A DNA stretch of 50,737 nucleotides, the filler included, from Circinaria calcarea (taxonomy: Eukaryota): the NCBI GenBank assembly GCA_051942165.1. It is 3 parts of 3 records of this genome, joined end to end, with 100 filler letters (N's around TTAATTAATTAA, not from the genome) between each part and the next. Parts side by side here need not be neighbours in the genome. Positions count along the whole stretch, not along the records: positions 33,923 to 50,737 come from JAVECS010000299.1; 2 more parts are not named here. One strand, written 5' to 3'. The notes below the pieces were generated by a model. The model ran no database searches, had not been told where the DNA came from, and saw only the letters and a program-made list of their open reading frames with translations. Below, one piece after another: positions 18,824-50,737 of the stretch (position 1 is the stretch's first letter; each line of letters opens with the position of its first letter). Made by a program: the position numbers and the translations under genes.

Positions 18824-21760
18824 TCATATCAACCTGACCGAGTTCTTCTCTTCGCCCACATTACCCCTTTTAATTCTAGGTGGATGCACAGATGAGTCCT
18901 GGCTACTGAAATGTACAGGGTACGTTGTCGAACTCGGCACTGCGACCTTGGACTCGTTTGATCTCCTTCCTTCTCTTGAATTTGTGTTCGAATTGGTTGC
19001 TAAAGCTGACATTGCGGTGTATGTTTCCTGGGATCTGGTTTCGTTTGTTGGACCACTCTTCGGGCTGGACTTTTCCTTGAAATTTTTCTTTGGCGTTCGA
19101 TCCTCAACAGCCTTGCGAACAAGAGCGACAAGACCCTTTGCTGTCCAAGGATGTTCAGGGACAGGTGATATGAGCGGATGTTCAATCTGATGGGTGGTTA
19201 CTCCAGTGACACCCCATGCTGTTTTGCAGTTAGCTTCGATTGCCTGCGGAGCTTGAGCTTCCAAGGATACAATTCAGTGTACCCACCATGGTTGCCTAAA
19301 TTGAAAACGACGATTGTGAAGACGATCATAGATAGGAATGGCGAAATGATCTTGCTAATCAGAAATCCGAGAACAAGTTTGTGCGCCCGGGTTCGTAGAA
19401 GCGGCTCTCGGAAGATAATGAAGAAGAGGTACCAACAAGTCGGGATTTGGGTGACGATAAGTAGCGGTATGAGCTTGATAATGCGGAAATAGTGAACTAG
19501 TCCGCGAATGAAGAGGATTGTGTTGGCAACACGGTAGTAAACCAGGGTCAGTCGGACTAGCTCTACCAACGCCCAGAGTCGAGTGATAAAGATTTGCTTC
19601 GCACCAAAGCTGGGTCCTAAGTTAGAAATGTTATTTTTATTGAAGTGAGGTTTTATTTACCTGTAGAAGAAATCATTGAAATATGCATTTGAGCCCCACC
19701 GCCGGCGTTGACTAAGATAATGTCGTAAAGACTGCGGTGCATCTGTTTCACTGACTGCGGATGGGACGAATAGTGTTCGCAGCTTCTTATGCTGAGAGAG
19801 CATGCAGAATGTGAGCCGGCGGTCCGTACCAAGGTACTGGACTTGGTGATGGAGGACCATACGGTCTGTCACTGGTTTGGCATAATCCTGAATTGCCCCT
19901 GCCATTTCTGGTCGAACGGCAATCATGGTGACACAACCTGGAAGACACGTAACCTTGCCCCAAAGTCCTTCTGCCCGTCTTCTTACGTACTGTCCAAAAG
20001 TATACTTGGTATTTGTTAGCAATGACCTAAAGAATCGGAAGACGTTGAAAGAACTAGTGTTCTAGCAGCCAAGGTCGTAGATAACGCACCTGGAACTGCT
20101 GGTACAAGTGCCACATCGACCACTCAGCACTACGCTTCATCTTGACTAGTACTAGACCACATGCTGCGACAGCAGATTTGTCCCTAGAAATTGCGTCGGC
20201 GAGACGTGTAATTGTACCCTCGTGAATGATAGAATTGGCATCAGTGCAAAAAATCAGGTCGAAGCCCTTGAAGTCCGGGTCCTCAGTCAAATTCGGCAAT
20301 ACCGTAGTCCCGATCTCATCTCTCAGCAGCTTCGTGTATAACGGCACATTTTCCCGAACAATGTTGAAGAGATCATGACACAGGATGAGGCTGTCTTTCT
20401 TCCCAGCCCTTTGTGCCTTCTCAATCACAATAGCTGGGATGTTACCCGGCATGAATCCAGCGTTGATTATAAGTTCACCACGAACGAATTTTGATGTCAC
20501 GTACGGCCTCCGGATGGTTTTGACAATTCGTATCAAGTGTGACTCGGTATTTCGAGGTTTTCCATCATGAATAATGCACATAACCTGCTTATGCTGTGCC
20601 AAGTCCTGGTCCAGAAGGTTTTGGACAGTTGTCATAATCTCTTCTTCGGTCTCCGAATAAGCTGTTATCAGAGTCAATATCCACTTTGGAGAAATTTTCT
20701 CTGCAGGATGTCTGTGTTTGTAGACAGCTTGGATAGGAAGAGCGACGATTGCAATGACAGTTGACAAAACATCCTTACTCTTCATGAAAAGGATTATGGC
20801 TAAAACCCATCCATAACGATGACTCAGAAGTGCTGCTAAGAGAAAAGCCGCGTTGAAACAGAACACAATGAAACAAAACATGATACGTTGCCATCGTAAA
20901 CTCCAAGGACTCAATACATGAGCAGGGTTTACAGGATCAGCAATGATAGGGTAATGGTGTTCATTGCCGGATTGACGAGTTGTATATGGGTACGAGTCTG
21001 GCGTGGTAGGCGTTCGTTGATTGGAGGGAAGACGAGACGATACATTTTCTGGATGGTTTGTGTTCGAGCTGGCATGCTCATGCTTTTCGGAGAGGGGAGT
21101 AGGATCTTGCCGCCTTGAATCTGTTATGAAACCGGGTTCGTAGGCGGACTTAGCTGCATGACCAGAAGCCTGGGGAGTCGCTAGATTTGCAGAGCGTTCA
21201 TTCCCTTTGATATGATGGCGTTGCTGCCGCATGAGATCAACATTTGAATAGGTGTCTGGCTTTGCACTCTGTTTGCCCTCTCCCCCATATCGATTGCTTG
21301 ACTGGGGAGCGCGCTCGTCATCGGATTTAAGCTTTGGCGGTTTAGAACCTAGCCCGAGGAATTTCCTTGGGCTTCTCCGCGCAGTCTGAGCTCTCCCAGT
21401 TAATCCTTCTCCGGGTTTCCTCGAATTAGACAGAGGTGGCTGATATTCCATCGGGCTACCTGCAGGAAATCCCCTCGAGCCCGCTAGAGTTTTCTGGTCG
21501 TGATCATGGCTGGTAATCTGGTCGATCGAGGGAAACGCCTGTCCTGGTCGGGGTTGGTGGCCCCTGAAGTTAAAATTTGCTCCACCCTGAAGTCGACGTT
21601 GGAGTGGTGAGATGATGGTGGGCGAGGCGTCATCACGATATTGGAGATGTTCCTGAGTCGCTTCTTTGAACCTTGAACCCTTTTCTCGTTCTCCAGCTTC
21701 CACGGCCGCTGGTTTGGCCGTGCCCCATTCTCCTACCAGTTTCGCGGCTACTAATTTCAT
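18824..21760 (-). CDS. Divergent chitin-synthase-like GT2 processive glycosyltransferase
   Basis: Four exons (introns ~20089-20005, ~19660-19611, ~19286-19220). Disordered N-terminus, TM pair, AGKKDSL, TDANS, QQFQY, VTCLPGC, LGTDRRLT, ETDAP, SQRRRW, C-terminal TMs, NHAWG. Confidence 0.9.
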
Positions 21761-34497: not shown

Positions 34498-35724
34498 TCA
34501 TAACGATGGATGAGCAACACAACTGAACCTTACACCCACATCCTTGAAAGCACAGACTAGATTCTCCATCTCGTCCAGAAGGCCGCCCTCTTTTCTAGTC
34601 ACCATGTACTCATCAGTGAAGCGGCGATCCCAACAGGCCACAAACTTTAGTGCAGGAAAGCAAGCATGCTTATCCTTTGCCAAAGCATTCATCCTTGTCC
34701 ACCAGGATGATAAATCGACGTTATTAGGCGTTGATAGAATGCTTATGTTATACTGCAGCTGTATCTCTTCTAACTGACAGGGTAGAGAGTTGCGGAATAT
34801 CAAGTCACCATGTTGCACTAGCAGACTCTCAGGGATCCCTAGTCGTTTGAGATTGGTGTACCTTCTAAAATCACCTATCAGAGATGGTGGGGGAAAGATA
34901 AGACCTCCGGTACTAGTGATGGAGATTTCTTCTAAAGTGCTTGCGTGAGGCTGTAGCGCGGCATCAATAACTGCCAGTGGCGTAGCAAAGCAACCTGCTG
35001 GTTCTTCCTCGCCCTGTATGTCCAAAACGATTCTTTTTAGATGTTTGGCTAAGAGTAGCATCTCTGGTAAGACACGCATATGCACTTCCTCCCAATAGAT
35101 AAGGTGAAGGTCAGTGACCAATGATGTTCGATGACATCTCCGAGGAAAGCAGTCTTTTGACAAACCCAGTTCGTCTAGGTCGAGGCTAATCAGGTCGATT
35201 TGTAGCTTTCGTAGAGTAGGAATCGAGAATACGTGAGCTAAGGCTCCTAGCTCGTGTGACTGTTCGTGTCTAGCAGTAGGGGAAGCAGCCCAAAAATCGA
35301 AGCTGATTCGCAAAGATACAAGACGGCCTAGACTTGGAAGGCGAAAATCGGATGCAGCATCGTCGAGAGCTAGTTCGTGCAATGAAGGGAAGAGCTTGAC
35401 GAACTCAGTCGCGTCGGTGCAACCAAGGGCAACAAGATTCCACATTTTGACATGCAGCACCGCAACGTGTGAGCAAAGTGACGGATTCCTAGATAACACC
35501 CTAAAGACCGATCGAAACTTTTTCTCGTGAATGTAATTTTGTGAGTACCAATCCGTGCTAATGGTGTGATAGAGGAGTGGTTCCGCTATGGCTCTAAAAC
35601 ACCGAGACACTCGAGTGACCCGAGCCACATAAGGTTGTAAGGGAAGATAAGAAAAGATCTCGGTCAGAAGCTCATTGGGGAGCTCTGTGATCGATACGGG
35701 CGTTCTATCTTCAGGCTCTGCCAT
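34498..35724 (-). CDS. F-box protein with leucine-rich-repeat-like C-terminus
   Basis: SITELPNELLTEIFSYL..VTRVSRCFRAIAEPLLY F-box; repeated LxxLxI segments; single exon. Confidence 0.82.
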   Translation of the reverse strand: MAEPEDRTPVSITELPNELLTEIFSYLPLQPYVARVTRVSRCFRAIAEPLLYHTISTDWYSQNYIHEKKFRSVFRVLSRNPSLCSHVAVLHVKMWNLVALGCTDATEFVKLFPSLHELALDDAASDFRLPSLGRLVSLRISFDFWAASPTARHEQSHELGALAHVFSIPTLRKLQIDLISLDLDELGLSKDCFPRRCHRTSLVTDLHLIYWEEVHMRVLPEMLLLAKHLKRIVLDIQGEEEPAGCFATPLAVIDAALQPHASTLEEISITSTGGLIFPPPSLIGDFRRYTNLKRLGIPESLLVQHGDLIFRNSLPCQLEEIQLQYNISILSTPNNVDLSSWWTRMNALAKDKHACFPALKFVACWDRRFTDEYMVTRKEGGLLDEMENLVCAFKDVGVRFSCVAHPSL

Positions 35725-36887
35725 GTTGGAAGAGAGTATCTTAACTGACTGTGAAGCCTGAAGTAGAGGAAAAGAGGACTGTAAAGGCGTTTGCAATGAG
35801 CTGGTCAAGACCAGGTGGGTAAACCTAAGCCTGGAAATCGCAGCAATAGTCCGTAGTCACTTAGCCGGTGTTCTCTTTACGGCTGGTTCACTCTATATAT
35901 CAGCTTAGTGAATTCTCGGTGTGATGATTTATCACCGAGTCACTTTGTGTTGATAACACGTCAAGGCAACTGATTGTCCGAGTCGCTACCTTAATTACCT
36001 TTGCCAGTCTTACCGCCACTGGCGCGTTGCGGCGCCAATGAACCCTAACTCGCCTAAAAGTTCGAAGCACAAAATTGGGGTTTTGGGTCGCAACGCCCTA
36101 ACGCATTACAATTCGATCATCTCAAGAGACAGTCAGTTTTATTCAACATTACTTAACATGCATAGGATGTCCATACTCAGCCACGTTCTGTTTTGTGTGG
36201 AGCTGAAACATGCAAAAGAAGATATGCTAATAGGGGGTGGTTCTCCTCCAAACCTCCAGGTGCAACAAAAGTCTTTATTATTTATCTTTTCTAGATGAGA
36301 TCGCTCGCTGTATGTAAGCTCGCGGGGTTCTATAGAACGCTCTTTGGCGTGATCTGAGTTACCCCTTCCCGAAACCACGGTCGGTGTGGCAGGAACTGAC
36401 TTTGACGTAGCTCAAATGACAGCATTTTACTTCGTCATCGAGTAAAGTTTCGCTGGCCAACTCCTTAGAAGTTGAGCTTCCACTCTATCCTATGACTGCC
36501 TAGTCTGTCTACTCTCTCACTCAAATTTCAAGCATTCAACTGGACTTGGGGGCAAATGAAAATTCTCGGAGGACGAATGTGTTTTGCCAGCATCTGGGAA
36601 AGCGCTATGAGTCAGGGTTATGATACTTATGTGCTCATATCGGTTGATCTTGATAAATTTGCGCACAGACCTTTCAAATAGCAGGAACTCCGGTTCTAGC
36701 CGCCAGTGTGGCCAGCATCCCATATTCCATTATTCTCGTTGTAGACTCCGATTCAAAGCGGAGTCAGACTAGAGTTTCCATTCCGACCTTGAGCTAGCAG
36801 GAGGCGCAGATCCAAGGCCGGTATGAACACTGATAGAAACCTATCTCATGTCCAATGCTGGAAAGCTCACCTTCTTCGGGCGATCCC

Positions 36888-46081: not shown

Positions 46082-48102
46082 TGCTGGTTGTAAGTTAGCT
46101 TGAGAGGCTCAAATGACGAACGTAGGGCAGCTTACTCTTTCCTAGCTTCTGAATTGGGGATGAGACCCTCCAGAATATGTAATGAATCAACACACTGAAA
46201 GACTCATCGTGTTAGCTATCAGTGCATCGAGGTTACTTTCTGATTGAGACTACACAGAGAAGACAAGGGCGAAGAAAAAAGGACCAGAACTTACAGGAAC
46301 ATCCGGGAACCTATAGCATGACACGGAGAATATTTGTACCCTTCATCAATTTGCAAACATTTCTGAGCTTGCTGACTTTTATCCTGTGTAGGCTTCGTGG
46401 AGAGTAGTTTGAAGTAGGAGAAGAGCAGAGCGATGATTGAAGTTTAAAAGTCAAAGACTGAAAGTGTTGGATTACAAGATGTGTCGATGAAGGTGAATGC
46501 AGTGCTAGACTAGCTGCGGTCGATGAGCGAAATAGTGTTGAAGCCGAATCTGTTACCTTCTGGCGTCTTCACGACAATGCTGATACCTAGGACCCCATGC
46601 TCATTCCCCAGAGGCCACGCTGTCGACAAGAAATCACAACAAAGACACCTGCATTTGCATAGCTCTTCGAGGCTATCATGATGGTGGGGCCCATTCATGC
46701 ACAAAGCTCATATGATATATACCATGCTGCAAATGGAAAAGGACATCATTCTCACAGAACGTGTCTTGGAAATGGCCCTGGCACGAAGTATCAAGAGAGG
46801 TAAGAAAGGCCAGCTTCCATAAAGAATAAGATAGAAGGGCATGGTACTAGTTATACATGAAGCATGCCTTGAAAAGAAAGCAAGATGCCTATGTGACTTA
46901 GAAGTTTGGAGGGCATTGTGGGTCTTGGAAAAGAGACGTTCTGGGATGTCGGGATCTGGACCTTTATAGTACATAAGCGACCGCCGGGTAAGTCCTAGAT
47001 ACCATCATTCTCACAGGAGTGAATGAAGTGTTCACCAAACAGGCTTCTTTGAGACTGGCGGGGACAGGAGTGCACGGCCATTTGTGATGGCGCCCCTTGT
47101 GGAGATGTGTTCTCGATTTTGTGCACTTGCTTTCTTCGAGTCACCGTTGGATGTCACTGCGTTGTGCGTTGTCCATTGTAGGGGCTGAGTGCAATGGTCT
47201 TTGAGGATGATAGCTAATCTGCATGACAGAGCCCTTGTGGGGGCTTGCTCCGCGTATAGCGCAGCAAGCAATATCGAGAAAGATGGATGATTCGGGTGCA
47301 GAACCACAAGGCATTGCCCCAACAATCTTCGATTACCCTGGCTAATCAGCGCTCTTACTTCCCTTTCACGCATACCTTTCAAACCACCAACAGCCGATGC
47401 CCCACAACGATGCCACCTAGGACCGGTCAGAGTACCTTGGCTGTCTCCGGTCTTTCATCGACTTGCACAGGGTTTGATCATGGAGGCGAAATCAGACACA
47501 GTGGCAGCATCGACTAATCATTCCAACAGTCACTGAAAGGGCTGAATATAGCATCGAGGCTTACTTTTGAATCCCAGTTTTGCATATGATTATCTCGGGT
47601 AGAAAGCCTCTTTTGAACAGTAACTAGTCAATAGCAACATCAGGCTCCGTCACGTTACACTCGAGGACGCGGCCAATGTAAAAAGGGATTGAGAGTAGCA
47701 GATCATAGAGATCGTCCCCCTGAGTTCGCTTTATGCGCGGTTAGCATGACGAAGCCTTCAAAATGTATATGCCGGCTGTGGTATCCACCAGGAGGGTTAG
47801 AAAGTCTTATTGGTAGTGGACTGATGGCTCCTTGGACAAAGGGATTAGCTATACCAAGAATATTAAATCGCTATCGATACCTATAAGCTATGATGGCAAC
47901 CACGGATTCTTAGAATAGTAAACCGTTTTCATAGTTTCGAGATTAATTTCATCTAGATTGCGCATTGTACCCATTTACATAGGACGACAGTACTGTAGAG
48001 CTAATTAGATACAATGCGCGAGAGCGTAAAACCTATGATACACTGTCAAATGTGGAGAATTATCGAGGACGGCTAGGAAAATTTAACTTAATCGGTAATA
48101 AG

Positions 48103-48111
48103 TATATATAA
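48103..48111 (+). promoter_or_regulatory. TATA box of U6 gene
   Basis: TATATATAA 30 nt upstream of the inferred U6 start. Confidence 0.75.
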
Positions 48112-48153
48112 TTTTTAAGGATATCTTTTCTTGCCTTCGGGCATTTGGGTATG

Positions 48154-48164
48154 TGGTGCAATGG
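48154..48164 (+). promoter_or_regulatory. Pol III box A inside U6 intron 1
   Basis: TGGTGCAATGG matches TRGYNNANNNG at +22. Confidence 0.65.
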
Positions 48165-48303
48165 TAGAAATCAATGTGAATGTTGTACTAACTTCTTTCA
48201 GTCAATTTGAAACGATACAGAGAAGATTAGCATGGCCCCTGCACTAAGGATGACACGCTCAATCAAAGAGAAGGTTAGTCATCCATATCTTTCGGTAGTC
48301 ATA

Positions 48304-48313
48304 GTTCGAATAC
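48304..48313 (+). promoter_or_regulatory. Pol III box B-like element inside U6 intron 2
   Basis: GTTCGAATAC, one mismatch to GTTCRANYC, overlapping the branch site. Confidence 0.6.
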
Positions 48314-48340
48314 TAATTCTTCCACCTCCATAGCTACAAG

Positions 48341-48348
48341 TTTTTTTT
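48341..48348 (+). terminator. Pol III oligo-T terminator
   Basis: T8 directly after U6 exon 3. Confidence 0.85.
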
Positions 48349-48656
48349 AAATTTTTTATTTTCAACTTTGTAAACGGATATAATATTTTTAGGTAAAGAT
48401 TTTACGCAGTAACATATATCCACCAGAGATTTCCCTGAATTATTTTGTTGCTTTTGGCAGCGACTTTTGCTCATTCCGCCTCGGATTGGTGGCATAAGGC
48501 CTTGGCGGATCTCGCCTATTGTGCATGCATGCCAGTTATGGAGTTGGCTCTCAGCCCCGTTGGAGCCAATTTACTAACTCCAGGCGGAAATGGGAACACA
48601 TTTACAATTCATGCTCAATCTTCCCTGCGACAGTGGAATGCTTGTGAGTTGTAGAA

Positions 48657-50737
48657 ATGTCTGCGTTCAAAAGAGCGCCGGTGACAGGCGGTCCTCAAGG
48701 GGACGTTCTTGGCCGCCTACGGGAGGTACAAATTGTGGCCTCCAAGCCGGTATTACCAGCTGGTACGGATCTCTAATCTTTACGTTGACGGGCTAGCTAA
48801 CAGATGCTAGAGATTCTCTCCATAATTCTCGAATACCTTGCAGTACCAGATTTACTACATTTTGCTCGAGTATCCAAACGCATGCGGGAGATGGTCTACG
48901 ATGACACAAGATGGGTACAGCGGTTACGGTTAATAGGCTGTTGGAATGAAGCTGCTGCAAGAGCGAGAGGTGAAGAGGCAAGGCGTAGAAAGCTTGAGGC
49001 TTTCAACGCAGAACGGGAGGAGGAGCTGAAAAGAGCAGGAATTGGGGTCTCTGGCATGAGTGCTGTTGGTGGCTCTGAGTCGGCTGGAAAAGCTAGCGTT
49101 GGTACATCTCAAGTTCGAGGAAGACAAGCCTCTGAAGGTTATATAAATGGTGCCCGAGAGAATTCCTATCTGAGCGCGCAAGATGATGGCTTTGACTTCA
49201 CTACTCTATCACCGACTACACCTGACTTTTCACTTACTCACGTGCCGCTCGATGCTGCTTCTGTCCTCGAAATCATCGCGAGAGCGCGCTCTATTCGTGG
49301 CGCTGCAAGGCAGGAATATGGTCGGATTTATGGAGCATTGGGACCTTTTTACCGGGATGCTGTGCGATCTAAACACCCCTCGCATGCCAGGATCTTTCGC
49401 GTATACCGTGATCCTAACCAACAAGCACAGATGCTCGCACAGTTATATCGATTTGCCAAAAGTGATCTTTCACAAGGCTGGCAACAACGTGAAGCCAAAC
49501 TTGAGCAGATGATCTCGGCGTTCGAAAATGCTGTATCTCGCGAATTCGAACAAGGCCTAAAGCTTGAAGATGTCGATGGTAGGATGCGGAAATATGCACA
49601 CGTCCTGGTGACTTTGAATGGTGGTCAGAGAGCCGCGGAGAGGTTCGTCTCGGAGAATCCTCTCATCAAGGACCGGCTGAACCTTGGGGACCCAATGGAC
49701 TGCGTCAGTCCTGCAAGTATTGAGTATCTATCCCTGGAGGAGTCGCATGCCTTCTTCGGTCATCTATCCGCTGCTTTCAATGCACAGATAGCCATCATTG
49801 ATCGGGTTTTCCCTGCTTCGGTCAATGTTGCGATCCCCTTCCTACGCAAGGTAGGTACCGACGTCATCGCCACATACCTCAATACGGTGTTGAATTATGT
49901 TCATGAAAGGAGCATTGAATGCTATGTGCGAGCTGTTTCTGGCATGTATGAGCAAAGCCTTCGTTTCGCGAAATCGCTGCAGCCGACCCGGCTTTCGGGG
50001 GATGAGTTCTACGAGACACTGGACCAGGTGTTGACAGACATCTTTGAGCCTCATGTCAATCTATATCTTGCAGAAGAAATGGCTTTTTTTAAGCGAAGGT
50101 CGGAGATCGAGGTTAACACTTGGGAAAGACAGCTTTCCCAACAGGACGCCTCGGTCGAGTCAATGTACATGTCGAATGTCAATCGGCAAGCAGACAAGCG
50201 TGACTTTCTAACATCCTTCAAGAAAGTCGTCATGATGCCAGTGAATGTTCTACCCACATTTCCCATGTCTTCTCGATTCGGCGGCAAGACTGCGACAGCG
50301 AAAGCTTTAGTCAACGAAGAGAAGCTAGATAATCCGCAGCTGGCGACTTTACAGGAGACTACCAGACCTGGTACACCCAGTTCACTCAGTGGCTCTATGC
50401 TAATGATGCCGCGATCGTCGACTCCTGTAGCGGAACCACCAACAACGGAATTGGCTGCCAAAGCTGCTATCATGAAATCTAGATTGGAAGGAATCAGGTC
50501 ATTATTTAGCCTTGAAGTAGCGCTCAACCTGGTCCACATGGCCAAGGCAAGTATAGAGCGAGCAGCAGTATTCGCAAAAGTCAAAACCCGTTTCGAAGCT
50601 GCTGCCCATAACCAATGCGAAGCAATTTTCATCCTGCTGTTGAAGACCTTGGGAGATCGCCACGTCAGAGCGGGCTTCGACCAGGCTGTTGAGCATCTTT
50701 CCAAGTACAACCCTCGAGCTTCCAGTGACCAGAGTCA
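48657..50737 (+). CDS. RCY1: Recyclin-1 (F-box plus Sec10-like domain), runs off the window
   Basis: Absent from the ORF track because there is no stop in the window. Exon 1 to ~48762, short intron, then LPAEILSIILEYL..FARVSKRMREMVYDDTRWVQRL..ARSIRGAARQEYGRIY..ADKRDFLTSFKKVVMMPV..ELAAKAAIMKSRLEGIRSLFSLEVAL. Confidence 0.9.

Follow-up and report, generated by a model that had tools for sequence, protein, structure and literature searches.

A Circinaria calcarea U6 snRNA gene whose two introns carry candidate A-box and B-box promoter elements

In this study, we analyzed a window of 50,737 nucleotides, i.e. the whole stretch of Circinaria calcarea DNA under consideration (assembly GCA_051942165.1), which consists of three parts joined end to end. 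Near the end of the part derived from JAVECS010000299.1 lies a U6 snRNA gene interrupted by two short inserts. The features of the locus and of its neighbourhood are given below, with the basis of each assignment in brackets.

48103-48348, + strand: U6 snRNA gene, from TATA box through terminator (Rfam, direct reading)
48103-48111, + strand: TATA box TATATATAA, with a T-rich stretch after it (sequence)
48133-48148, + strand: U6 exon 1, made of the 5' hairpin GCC-UUCG-GGC and AUUUGG, ending ...CATTTGG (alignment to intronless U6 loci)
48149-48201, + strand: intron 1, 53 nt, with GTATGT donor, TACTAAC at 48186-48192 and CAG acceptor (sequence)
48154-48164, + strand: candidate A box TGGTGCAATGG, at +22 to +32 from the putative start (no mismatch to TRGYNNARTGG)
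48202-48273, + strand: U6 exon 2, 72 nt, beginning TCAATTTG, with ACAGAGA box, AGC triad and internal stem-loop region (Rfam; alignment)
48274-48333, + strand: intron 2, 60 nt, with GTTAGT donor, TACTAAT at 48311-48317 and TAG acceptor (sequence)
48303-48313, + strand: candidate B box AGTTCGAATAC (10-mer GTTCGAATAC at 48304-48313), at about +171 (two mismatches to GGTTCGANNCC)
48334-48348, + strand: U6 exon 3 CTACAAG and T8 Pol III terminator, the T8 at 48341-48348 (sequence; alignment)
48804-50735, + strand: F-box protein gene with a Sec10-like helical bundle, just downstream of U6 (domain matches)
34498-35808, - strand: second F-box protein gene (domain match)
20054-21760, - strand: intronless 568-aa chitin-synthase-like GT2 ORF (Pfam Chitin_synth_2)

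U6 snRNA was the sole Rfam family found in the whole window (RF00026, 48178-48292, + strand), with a covariance match of 76.3 bits for a gathering score of 44 and E=1.1e-17. The model runs into the start of intron 2 and reads the end of intron 1 as though it were the 5' stem. Exon 2 is identical to intronless U6 loci across its whole 72 nt, and no ORF of 60 aa or more overlaps the U6 locus, which is intergenic. The locus is a genuine fungal U6 snRNA gene with two mRNA-type introns. Further U6 copies, devoid of introns, may be present elsewhere in the genome, a mean of 2.3 U6 genes per fungal genome being reported (PMC5855946).

Both inserts have the attributes of spliceosomal introns, namely GT and AG ends, a branch site lying 10-20 nt ahead of the acceptor, and junctions at which U6 is restored. 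When the exons were joined in silico by their coordinates, both junctions gave back contiguous U6 exactly: removal of intron 1 leads to ...CATTTGGTCAATTTGAAAC, as in intronless U6 genes, and removal of intron 2 to ...CAAAGAGAAGCTAC..., as in intronless U6 loci. The spliced product is then a contiguous U6, with 5' hairpin, ACAGAGA, AGC triad and 3' tail, followed by its T-run terminator. We compared it to 63 intronless U6 genes from metagenome contigs, among the matches listed. Its identity to them has a median of 94% and a minimum of 89%, and reaches 98.1% with the six best (L111, L109, L103, L067, L050 and L048). The longest T run is 3 in intron 1 as well as in intron 2, as a Pol III transcript requires if it is to reach the T8 terminator. 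If unspliced, intron 2 provides no terminator of four or more T before 48341, and its retention would give an RNA without a proper 3' end. From these features, we infer that both introns are removed by splicing.

Other origins for the two inserts were considered and rejected. A derivation from tRNA genes was discarded, as no tRNA or relevant Rfam match was found in 47600-48900 at E<=10, and by eye D-stem and T-stem pairing was not seen; in the window as a whole, ARAGORN predicted 0 tRNA genes. Intron 1 as a partial copy of the U6 5' region (TCAATGTGAA compared to TCAATTTGAA) was rejected on the shuffle P of the local alignment (P=0.18), and intron 2 as duplicated exon sequence on that of its local alignment to the exons (P=0.99).

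Upstream of the gene, 30 nt separate the start of the TATA box TATATATAA from the first hairpin G. This residue, G48133, is the sole purine some 30 nt after the start of the TATA box, and we infer that transcription starts there, which would place the TATA box at about 30 bp upstream of the start. Such a spacing recurs among the listed fungal U6 genes. In a survey of 85 distinct listed U6 loci, in which a TATA-like motif was sought within 60 nt, the motif was present in 57 and absent from 28, and in 36 of the 57 TATA-bearing loci its start precedes the first hairpin G by 28-31 nt (among the matches listed). With G48133 taken as +1, the putative start, the two positions proposed in an earlier note on this DNA, a TATA box at -30 and an A box at +22, are both correct.

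This A box, described in the same note as tRNA-like and overlapping the last base of the intron 1 donor, is indeed found at 48154-48164. Its sequence, TGGTGCAATGG, matches every specified position of the tRNA A-box consensus TRGYNNARTGG, and it opens on the T that ends the donor. The consensus occurs 3 times in the 50.7-kb window, both strands included, for 3.06 occurrences expected, and TGGTGCAATGG is the only perfect A box within 48100-48360. The chance of finding one in intron 1, on the right strand, was estimated post hoc at P ~1.3e-3. In S. cerevisiae SNR6, the TATA box is at -30, box A at +21, the terminator at +109 and box B at +233 (PMC2667510; PMC9136082), a layout that agrees with the statement that yeast U6 uses TATA, A and B boxes. 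TGGTGCAATGG lies 51 bp after the start of the TATA box, as in SNR6, and at +22 it occupies the SNR6-type location, about 20 bp after the start, but it is intronic and lies outside the RNA-coding sequence. A good match to the A box is no proof of use by itself, since SNR6 carries non-productive "pseudoA" boxes, and the recognition of its box A has been described as inefficient (PMC9136082). Among the intronless listed loci, no tRNA-grade A box was found in the 5' part of U6 at up to one mismatch, apart from variants of the TGGTCAA... segment.

It had also been proposed that intron 1 splits the native internal A box of U6. Part of this stands, as TGG is physically parted from TCAATTTG, but that a working A box was broken is doubtful. 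The split 11-mer TGG|TCAATTTG (unsplit, TGGTCAATTTG), which would sit at +14, has two mismatches to TRGYNNARTGG by manual count, and the exon-intron junction TGGGTATGTGG, also at +14, likewise has two, so that the insertion of the intron did not clearly destroy anything. SNR6 box A, for its part, presumably aligns with the 11 nt that close exon 1 in this gene, and this segment is intact, at +6 to +16, a position that reflects the shorter 5' hairpin of this U6. An additional, much better A box at an SNR6-like position describes the evidence better than a replacement does.

The candidate B box of intron 2, AGTTCGAATAC, has an intact GTTCGA core and two deviations from the consensus GGTTCGANNCC. 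It ends in the 3 nt with which the branch site TACTAAT begins, and the B-box-like element overlapping the branch site that had been announced for intron 2 is thus present, at 48303-48313 and with a 3-nt overlap. The motif is not rare, as GGTTCGANNCC with up to 2 mismatches was observed 127 times in the window for 130 expected. When the TTCGA core is required, 34 sites remain on both strands, and the P value for intron 2 is ~1.7e-2 (post hoc). Between 48100 and 48800, no site other than AGTTCGAATAC is within 2 mismatches of GGTTCGANNCC. When the post hoc P values of the two boxes are combined, an A box followed by a B box on the right strand has a probability of ~2e-5 by chance. As for the two deviations, the downstream B boxes of listed fungal U6 loci have an A at position 1 in 11 cases out of 42 and an A at position 10 in 5 out of 42; position 10, where AGTTCGAATAC deviates, is a C in 28 of these 42 sites (among the matches listed). 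Similar deviants are found downstream of L089 (GGTTCGAGTAC) and of L067 and L118 (GATTCGAATAC). Both deviations being seen among downstream B boxes, AGTTCGAATAC falls within the natural range.

A downstream B box had also been named as what might do the job instead. With up to 2 mismatches to GGTTCGANNCC, no B box was found in the 450 nt that follow the terminator, to 48800, and the only near-matches to a short core pattern are GTTGGAGCC (48559) and GTTCAAAAG (48665). The locus therefore departs from the SNR6 arrangement, in which the B box is downstream of the terminator, its sole candidate being intragenic, and it conforms to the S. pombe arrangement, a B-box consensus inside a spliceosomal intron of U6, with 2 mismatches and the core intact. 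It could be argued that a conventional B box past the terminator acts here as in S. cerevisiae, the intronic one being irrelevant, all the more as this layout is the commonest one, found in 42 of 86 listed loci. The lack of any site with up to 2 mismatches to GGTTCGANNCC up to 48800, and the start at 48804 of a protein-coding gene (with F-box and Sec10-like domains), make this very improbable.

Related loci were collected by scanning metagenome contigs with 33 nt of exon 2 as query, which returned at least 118 loci, or 121 oriented copies including that of the window. Among the matches listed, U6 introns sit at no fewer than 8 different positions; none of these loci (at least 118) has both introns of the window together, nor do any of them have a canonical intron where intron 1 lies. 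A B site with the TTCGA core is present at most 200 nt past the terminator in 42 of 86 distinct listed loci, versus 5 of 64 upstream controls, and the RTTCGA core alone is found at 42 sites in 90 listed loci, versus ~6 expected by hand arithmetic. Upstream regions were used as a control because the minus strand (21/86 matches) is unusable for this purpose, TTCGAA being palindromic, and that control was discarded. A downstream B box is the usual arrangement in the listed fungal U6 loci. It follows from the 42/86 versus 5/64 comparison that a B box is the norm in these fungi; in the present gene, its sole candidate lies within an intron.

Intronic B sites are present in three lineages, i.e. intron 2 of the window, L039, and L097/L115, for 0.385 expected (P=0.007, post hoc, among the matches listed). 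When the window is left aside, 2 are observed for 0.35 expected (P=0.048, post hoc, among the matches listed). This count was made on 21 automatically delineated introns totalling 1149 nt, two of them from the window; the boundary and branch filters left out L030, L041, L080, L117 and L058, and near-duplicates were also left out. By eye, intronic B boxes are also seen in L080, which groups with L097, and in the 3' intron of L117 (GGTTCGTTCCC). The intron of L039, inserted after ...GGTCAAT, has a fused B box and branch site, AGTTCGAATACTAA (AGTTCGAATACTAAC), which repeats the fusion of the window at another site of insertion; a downstream B box, CGTTCGAACCC, is present in L039 too, 69 nt past the terminator. 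In L061 and L071, an intron near the intron-2 site is without B box, and AGTTCGAG(C/T)CC is found 18-19 nt after the terminator. L041 is without the intronic B box of its relatives L080 and L097, and has GGTTCGATCGA downstream, where L080 and L097 have nothing. Given the S. pombe precedent and this comparative support, the intron 2 B box is probably part of the promoter.

The intron shared by L061 and L071 resembles intron 2 in several respects: it is 60 nt long, has the rare GTTAGT donor and a TACTAAT branch site, and lies 2 nt from the intron-2 site. When intron 2 was compared to 22 introns, these two came out best (scores of 10 and 9, the next being 4). Of 63 alignment columns, 39 are identical, a similarity no greater than that of shuffled sequences with the splice signals preserved (P=0.30). 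The L061/L071 intron and intron 2 may be homologous.

Several listed loci, such as L022, L060, L076 and L100, have no recognisable B box anywhere, and the absence of a downstream one is therefore not diagnostic by itself. With the TATA-like motif also absent from 28 of 85 loci, fungal U6 promoters are evidently variable. This variability could suit a reading in which neither intronic motif works and both matches are due to chance, the gene being a silent or minor U6 paralogue or a pseudogene, or being driven by upstream elements alone, and according to a review, experiments have yet to validate that fungal U6 genes with introns are expressed and spliced (PMC5855946). We hold it to be improbable: the exons share 98% identity with intronless U6 genes and are free of damaging changes, TATA box, terminator and splice signals are all intact, T runs are avoided, and a joint probability of both boxes as low as that calculated above speaks against chance.

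Concerning the A box, one parallel was found outside the window. L090 has a second perfect intronic A box, TGGCCCAATGG, at intron +8 and at a different insertion site, for 0.03 expected (P=0.03, post hoc, among the matches listed); its relatives L013 and L114 have versions of it with 3 mismatches. Support for an intronic A box thus amounts to a single independent parallel with degenerate relatives, among the matches listed, while the intronic B box has both a precedent in S. pombe (PMC5855946) and related loci on its side. One may then suppose that only the intron 2 B box works, that the A-box match in intron 1 is fortuitous or dispensable, and that the TATA box places TFIIIB and the start together with weak A-like sequences of exon 1 or of the junction. 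The junction TGGGTATGTGG fits the A-box consensus as closely as the unsplit 11-mer, and A-like boxes can be non-productive, as the SNR6 example illustrates (PMC9136082). We nevertheless find this rather unlikely. A perfect 11-nt A match at the SNR6-like distance from the TATA box has a P of ~1e-3 (post hoc), and the alternative A-like sites, at +6 and +14, are nearer to the start than the +21 of SNR6 (PMC2667510). Motif quality, position and the L090 parallel lead us to lean, by a small measure, towards TGGTGCAATGG being a working A box.

Alone among spliceosomal RNAs, U6 is a Pol III product, whose internal promoter must as a rule share space with a highly constrained RNA sequence. As judged from the motifs of the locus, chances are about equal that its U6 is transcribed by Pol III from the TATA box and TFIIIC sites, the B box of intron 2 and, most likely, the A box of intron 1. 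TFIIIC would bind the intron 2 B box, contact the intron 1 A box 138 bp upstream, which would position its second module, and thereby set TFIIIB on the TATA box. Pol III would then initiate near 48133, pass both introns, devoid of T runs, and end at T8, after which the spliceosome would excise both introns, and the internal promoter with them. Intron loss through a spliced RNA copy would delete a promoter element, and the introns would thereby be held in place. That the A-box and the B-box parts hold together is, at best, evenly balanced. More tentatively still, the entire TFIIIC internal promoter may have been moved into two introns and be spliced away, transcription then needing the introns and mature U6 being freed from promoter constraints; the route may even be a recurrent one and not an isolated case, as suggested by the perfect or near-perfect tRNA-type A boxes of the L090 family, which belongs to unrelated fungi.

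If this arrangement is true, the promoter is transcribed, used as DNA, and then spliced away, and transcription and splicing signals physically overlap, the donor with the A box and the B box with the branch site. The persistence of such introns would be explained. The gene would also be a natural test case for the degree to which an A box can become independent of the RNA product. For the use of fungal U6 promoters in guide-RNA expression, upstream sequence alone may be insufficient.

The closest known system is S. pombe U6 (snu6), in which the B block lies in an mRNA-type intron (Tani & Ohshima 1989; Frendewey et al. 1990, cited in PMC5855946), so that the precedent invoked for an intronic B box is documented. 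The two genes have in common a Pol III U6 with a TATA box and a spliceosomal intron that holds the TFIIIC B box, and they share the same logic, loss of the intron meaning loss of the promoter. The S. pombe intron adjoins the catalytic AGC triad (PMC5855946), whereas intron 2 here follows ...CAAAGAGAAG (...GAGAAG) near the 3' end; the positions being different, the two introns are not homologous. In addition, a second intron with an A box is present here, and the B box is fused to the branch site. Fission yeast demonstrates that one promoter element, the B box, can reside in an intron; with both TFIIIC sites intronic, the present gene would be, if our reading is true, the complete version.

With SNR6, the locus shares the TATA, A and B architecture, the spacing of 51 bp from TATA to A box, and a long distance between A and B boxes, 138 bp here and 202 bp in SNR6 (PMC9136082). 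SNR6 has no introns, its A box is in the mature RNA and its B box is extragenic, whereas both boxes are transcribed and intronic here. The resemblance to tRNA genes, with their type 2 Pol III promoters, is limited to the motifs: that of intron 1 fits the A box perfectly and that of intron 2 keeps the GTTCGA core, but there is no tRNA-like structure here, the boxes are 138 bp apart, and they lie outside the final RNA.

Multi-intron fungal U6 genes have been described by Tani & Ohshima (1991) and in the survey of 145 genomes by Canzler, Stadler & Hertel (2016), who found up to four introns per U6 gene and also analyzed fungal U6 promoter elements (both as reported in PMC5855946). The present gene shares with them short canonical introns at lineage-specific sites, mostly in the 5' part or near the core, and flexible promoters. 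The review mentions no intronic A box from the 2016 survey (PMC5855946), and the survey itself may describe one. Full-text searches of the literature brought up neither an A box inside a U6 intron nor a U6 gene with both boxes intronic, a point that Canzler et al. (2016) or Frendewey et al. (1990) may cover. Introns in U6, U6 genes with several of them and a B box in an intron are all documented, and a description of an intronic A box did not turn up.

Several minor observations were made in the course of this analysis. The chitin-synthase-like ORF has metagenome proteins as nearest relatives, with 84% and 64% identity; named fungal homologues, some of them labelled "ESV-1-84", are at most 54% identical, over about half of the query. 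Judged from these relatives, the DNA belongs to Ascomycota, probably to Pezizomycotina.

Among the matches listed, L040 is the lone locus that shares the exact intron-1 position, TTTGG|TCAAT. Its insert has a GTAAGA donor, a CGCTAAC branch site and a TTG end instead of AG, and contains TTTCGAATTC. A second, canonical intron is found 7 nt after this odd insert.

Second matches in L015 and L042, as well as L110 and L035, consist of U6 3' halves, from about ACAGAGA on and with the T run, joined to unrelated GC-rich 5' sequence. In L015 and L042 these halves are inverted, at a distance of a few hundred bases from a U6 gene that is intact. All four resemble U6 copies that are truncated or chimeric. 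L008, L046, L051, L052 and L094, which are long contigs with near-identical flanks, have a U6 3' end ...GAGAAGCTAAAAAATTTAG, after which more than 150 nt pass without a run of at least 5 T.

L002, L006, L099 and similar loci are intronless U6 genes without canonical B box, in which GGCCTTKGGTCRWGACATGGAGAAG is conserved ~15-45 nt past the terminator. This element could be a B box that has diverged or a promoter element of another kind.

Finally, the intron of L013, L114 and L090, inserted after ...GGTCAAT, has its 5' two-thirds kept nearly like the exons, while its flanks have diverged. A block of ~35 nt inside this 5' U6 intron is strongly conserved (CAAYGGTCTWGCGTTGCRCT...CTAAC), and the other conserved islands outside of the exons are only the TATA box and GGGTTCGA downstream. 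In L090 the block opens with the perfect A box and is longer than it. On sequence grounds, this conservation footprint shows what would be a functional element in a 5' U6 intron, extending well past the A box.
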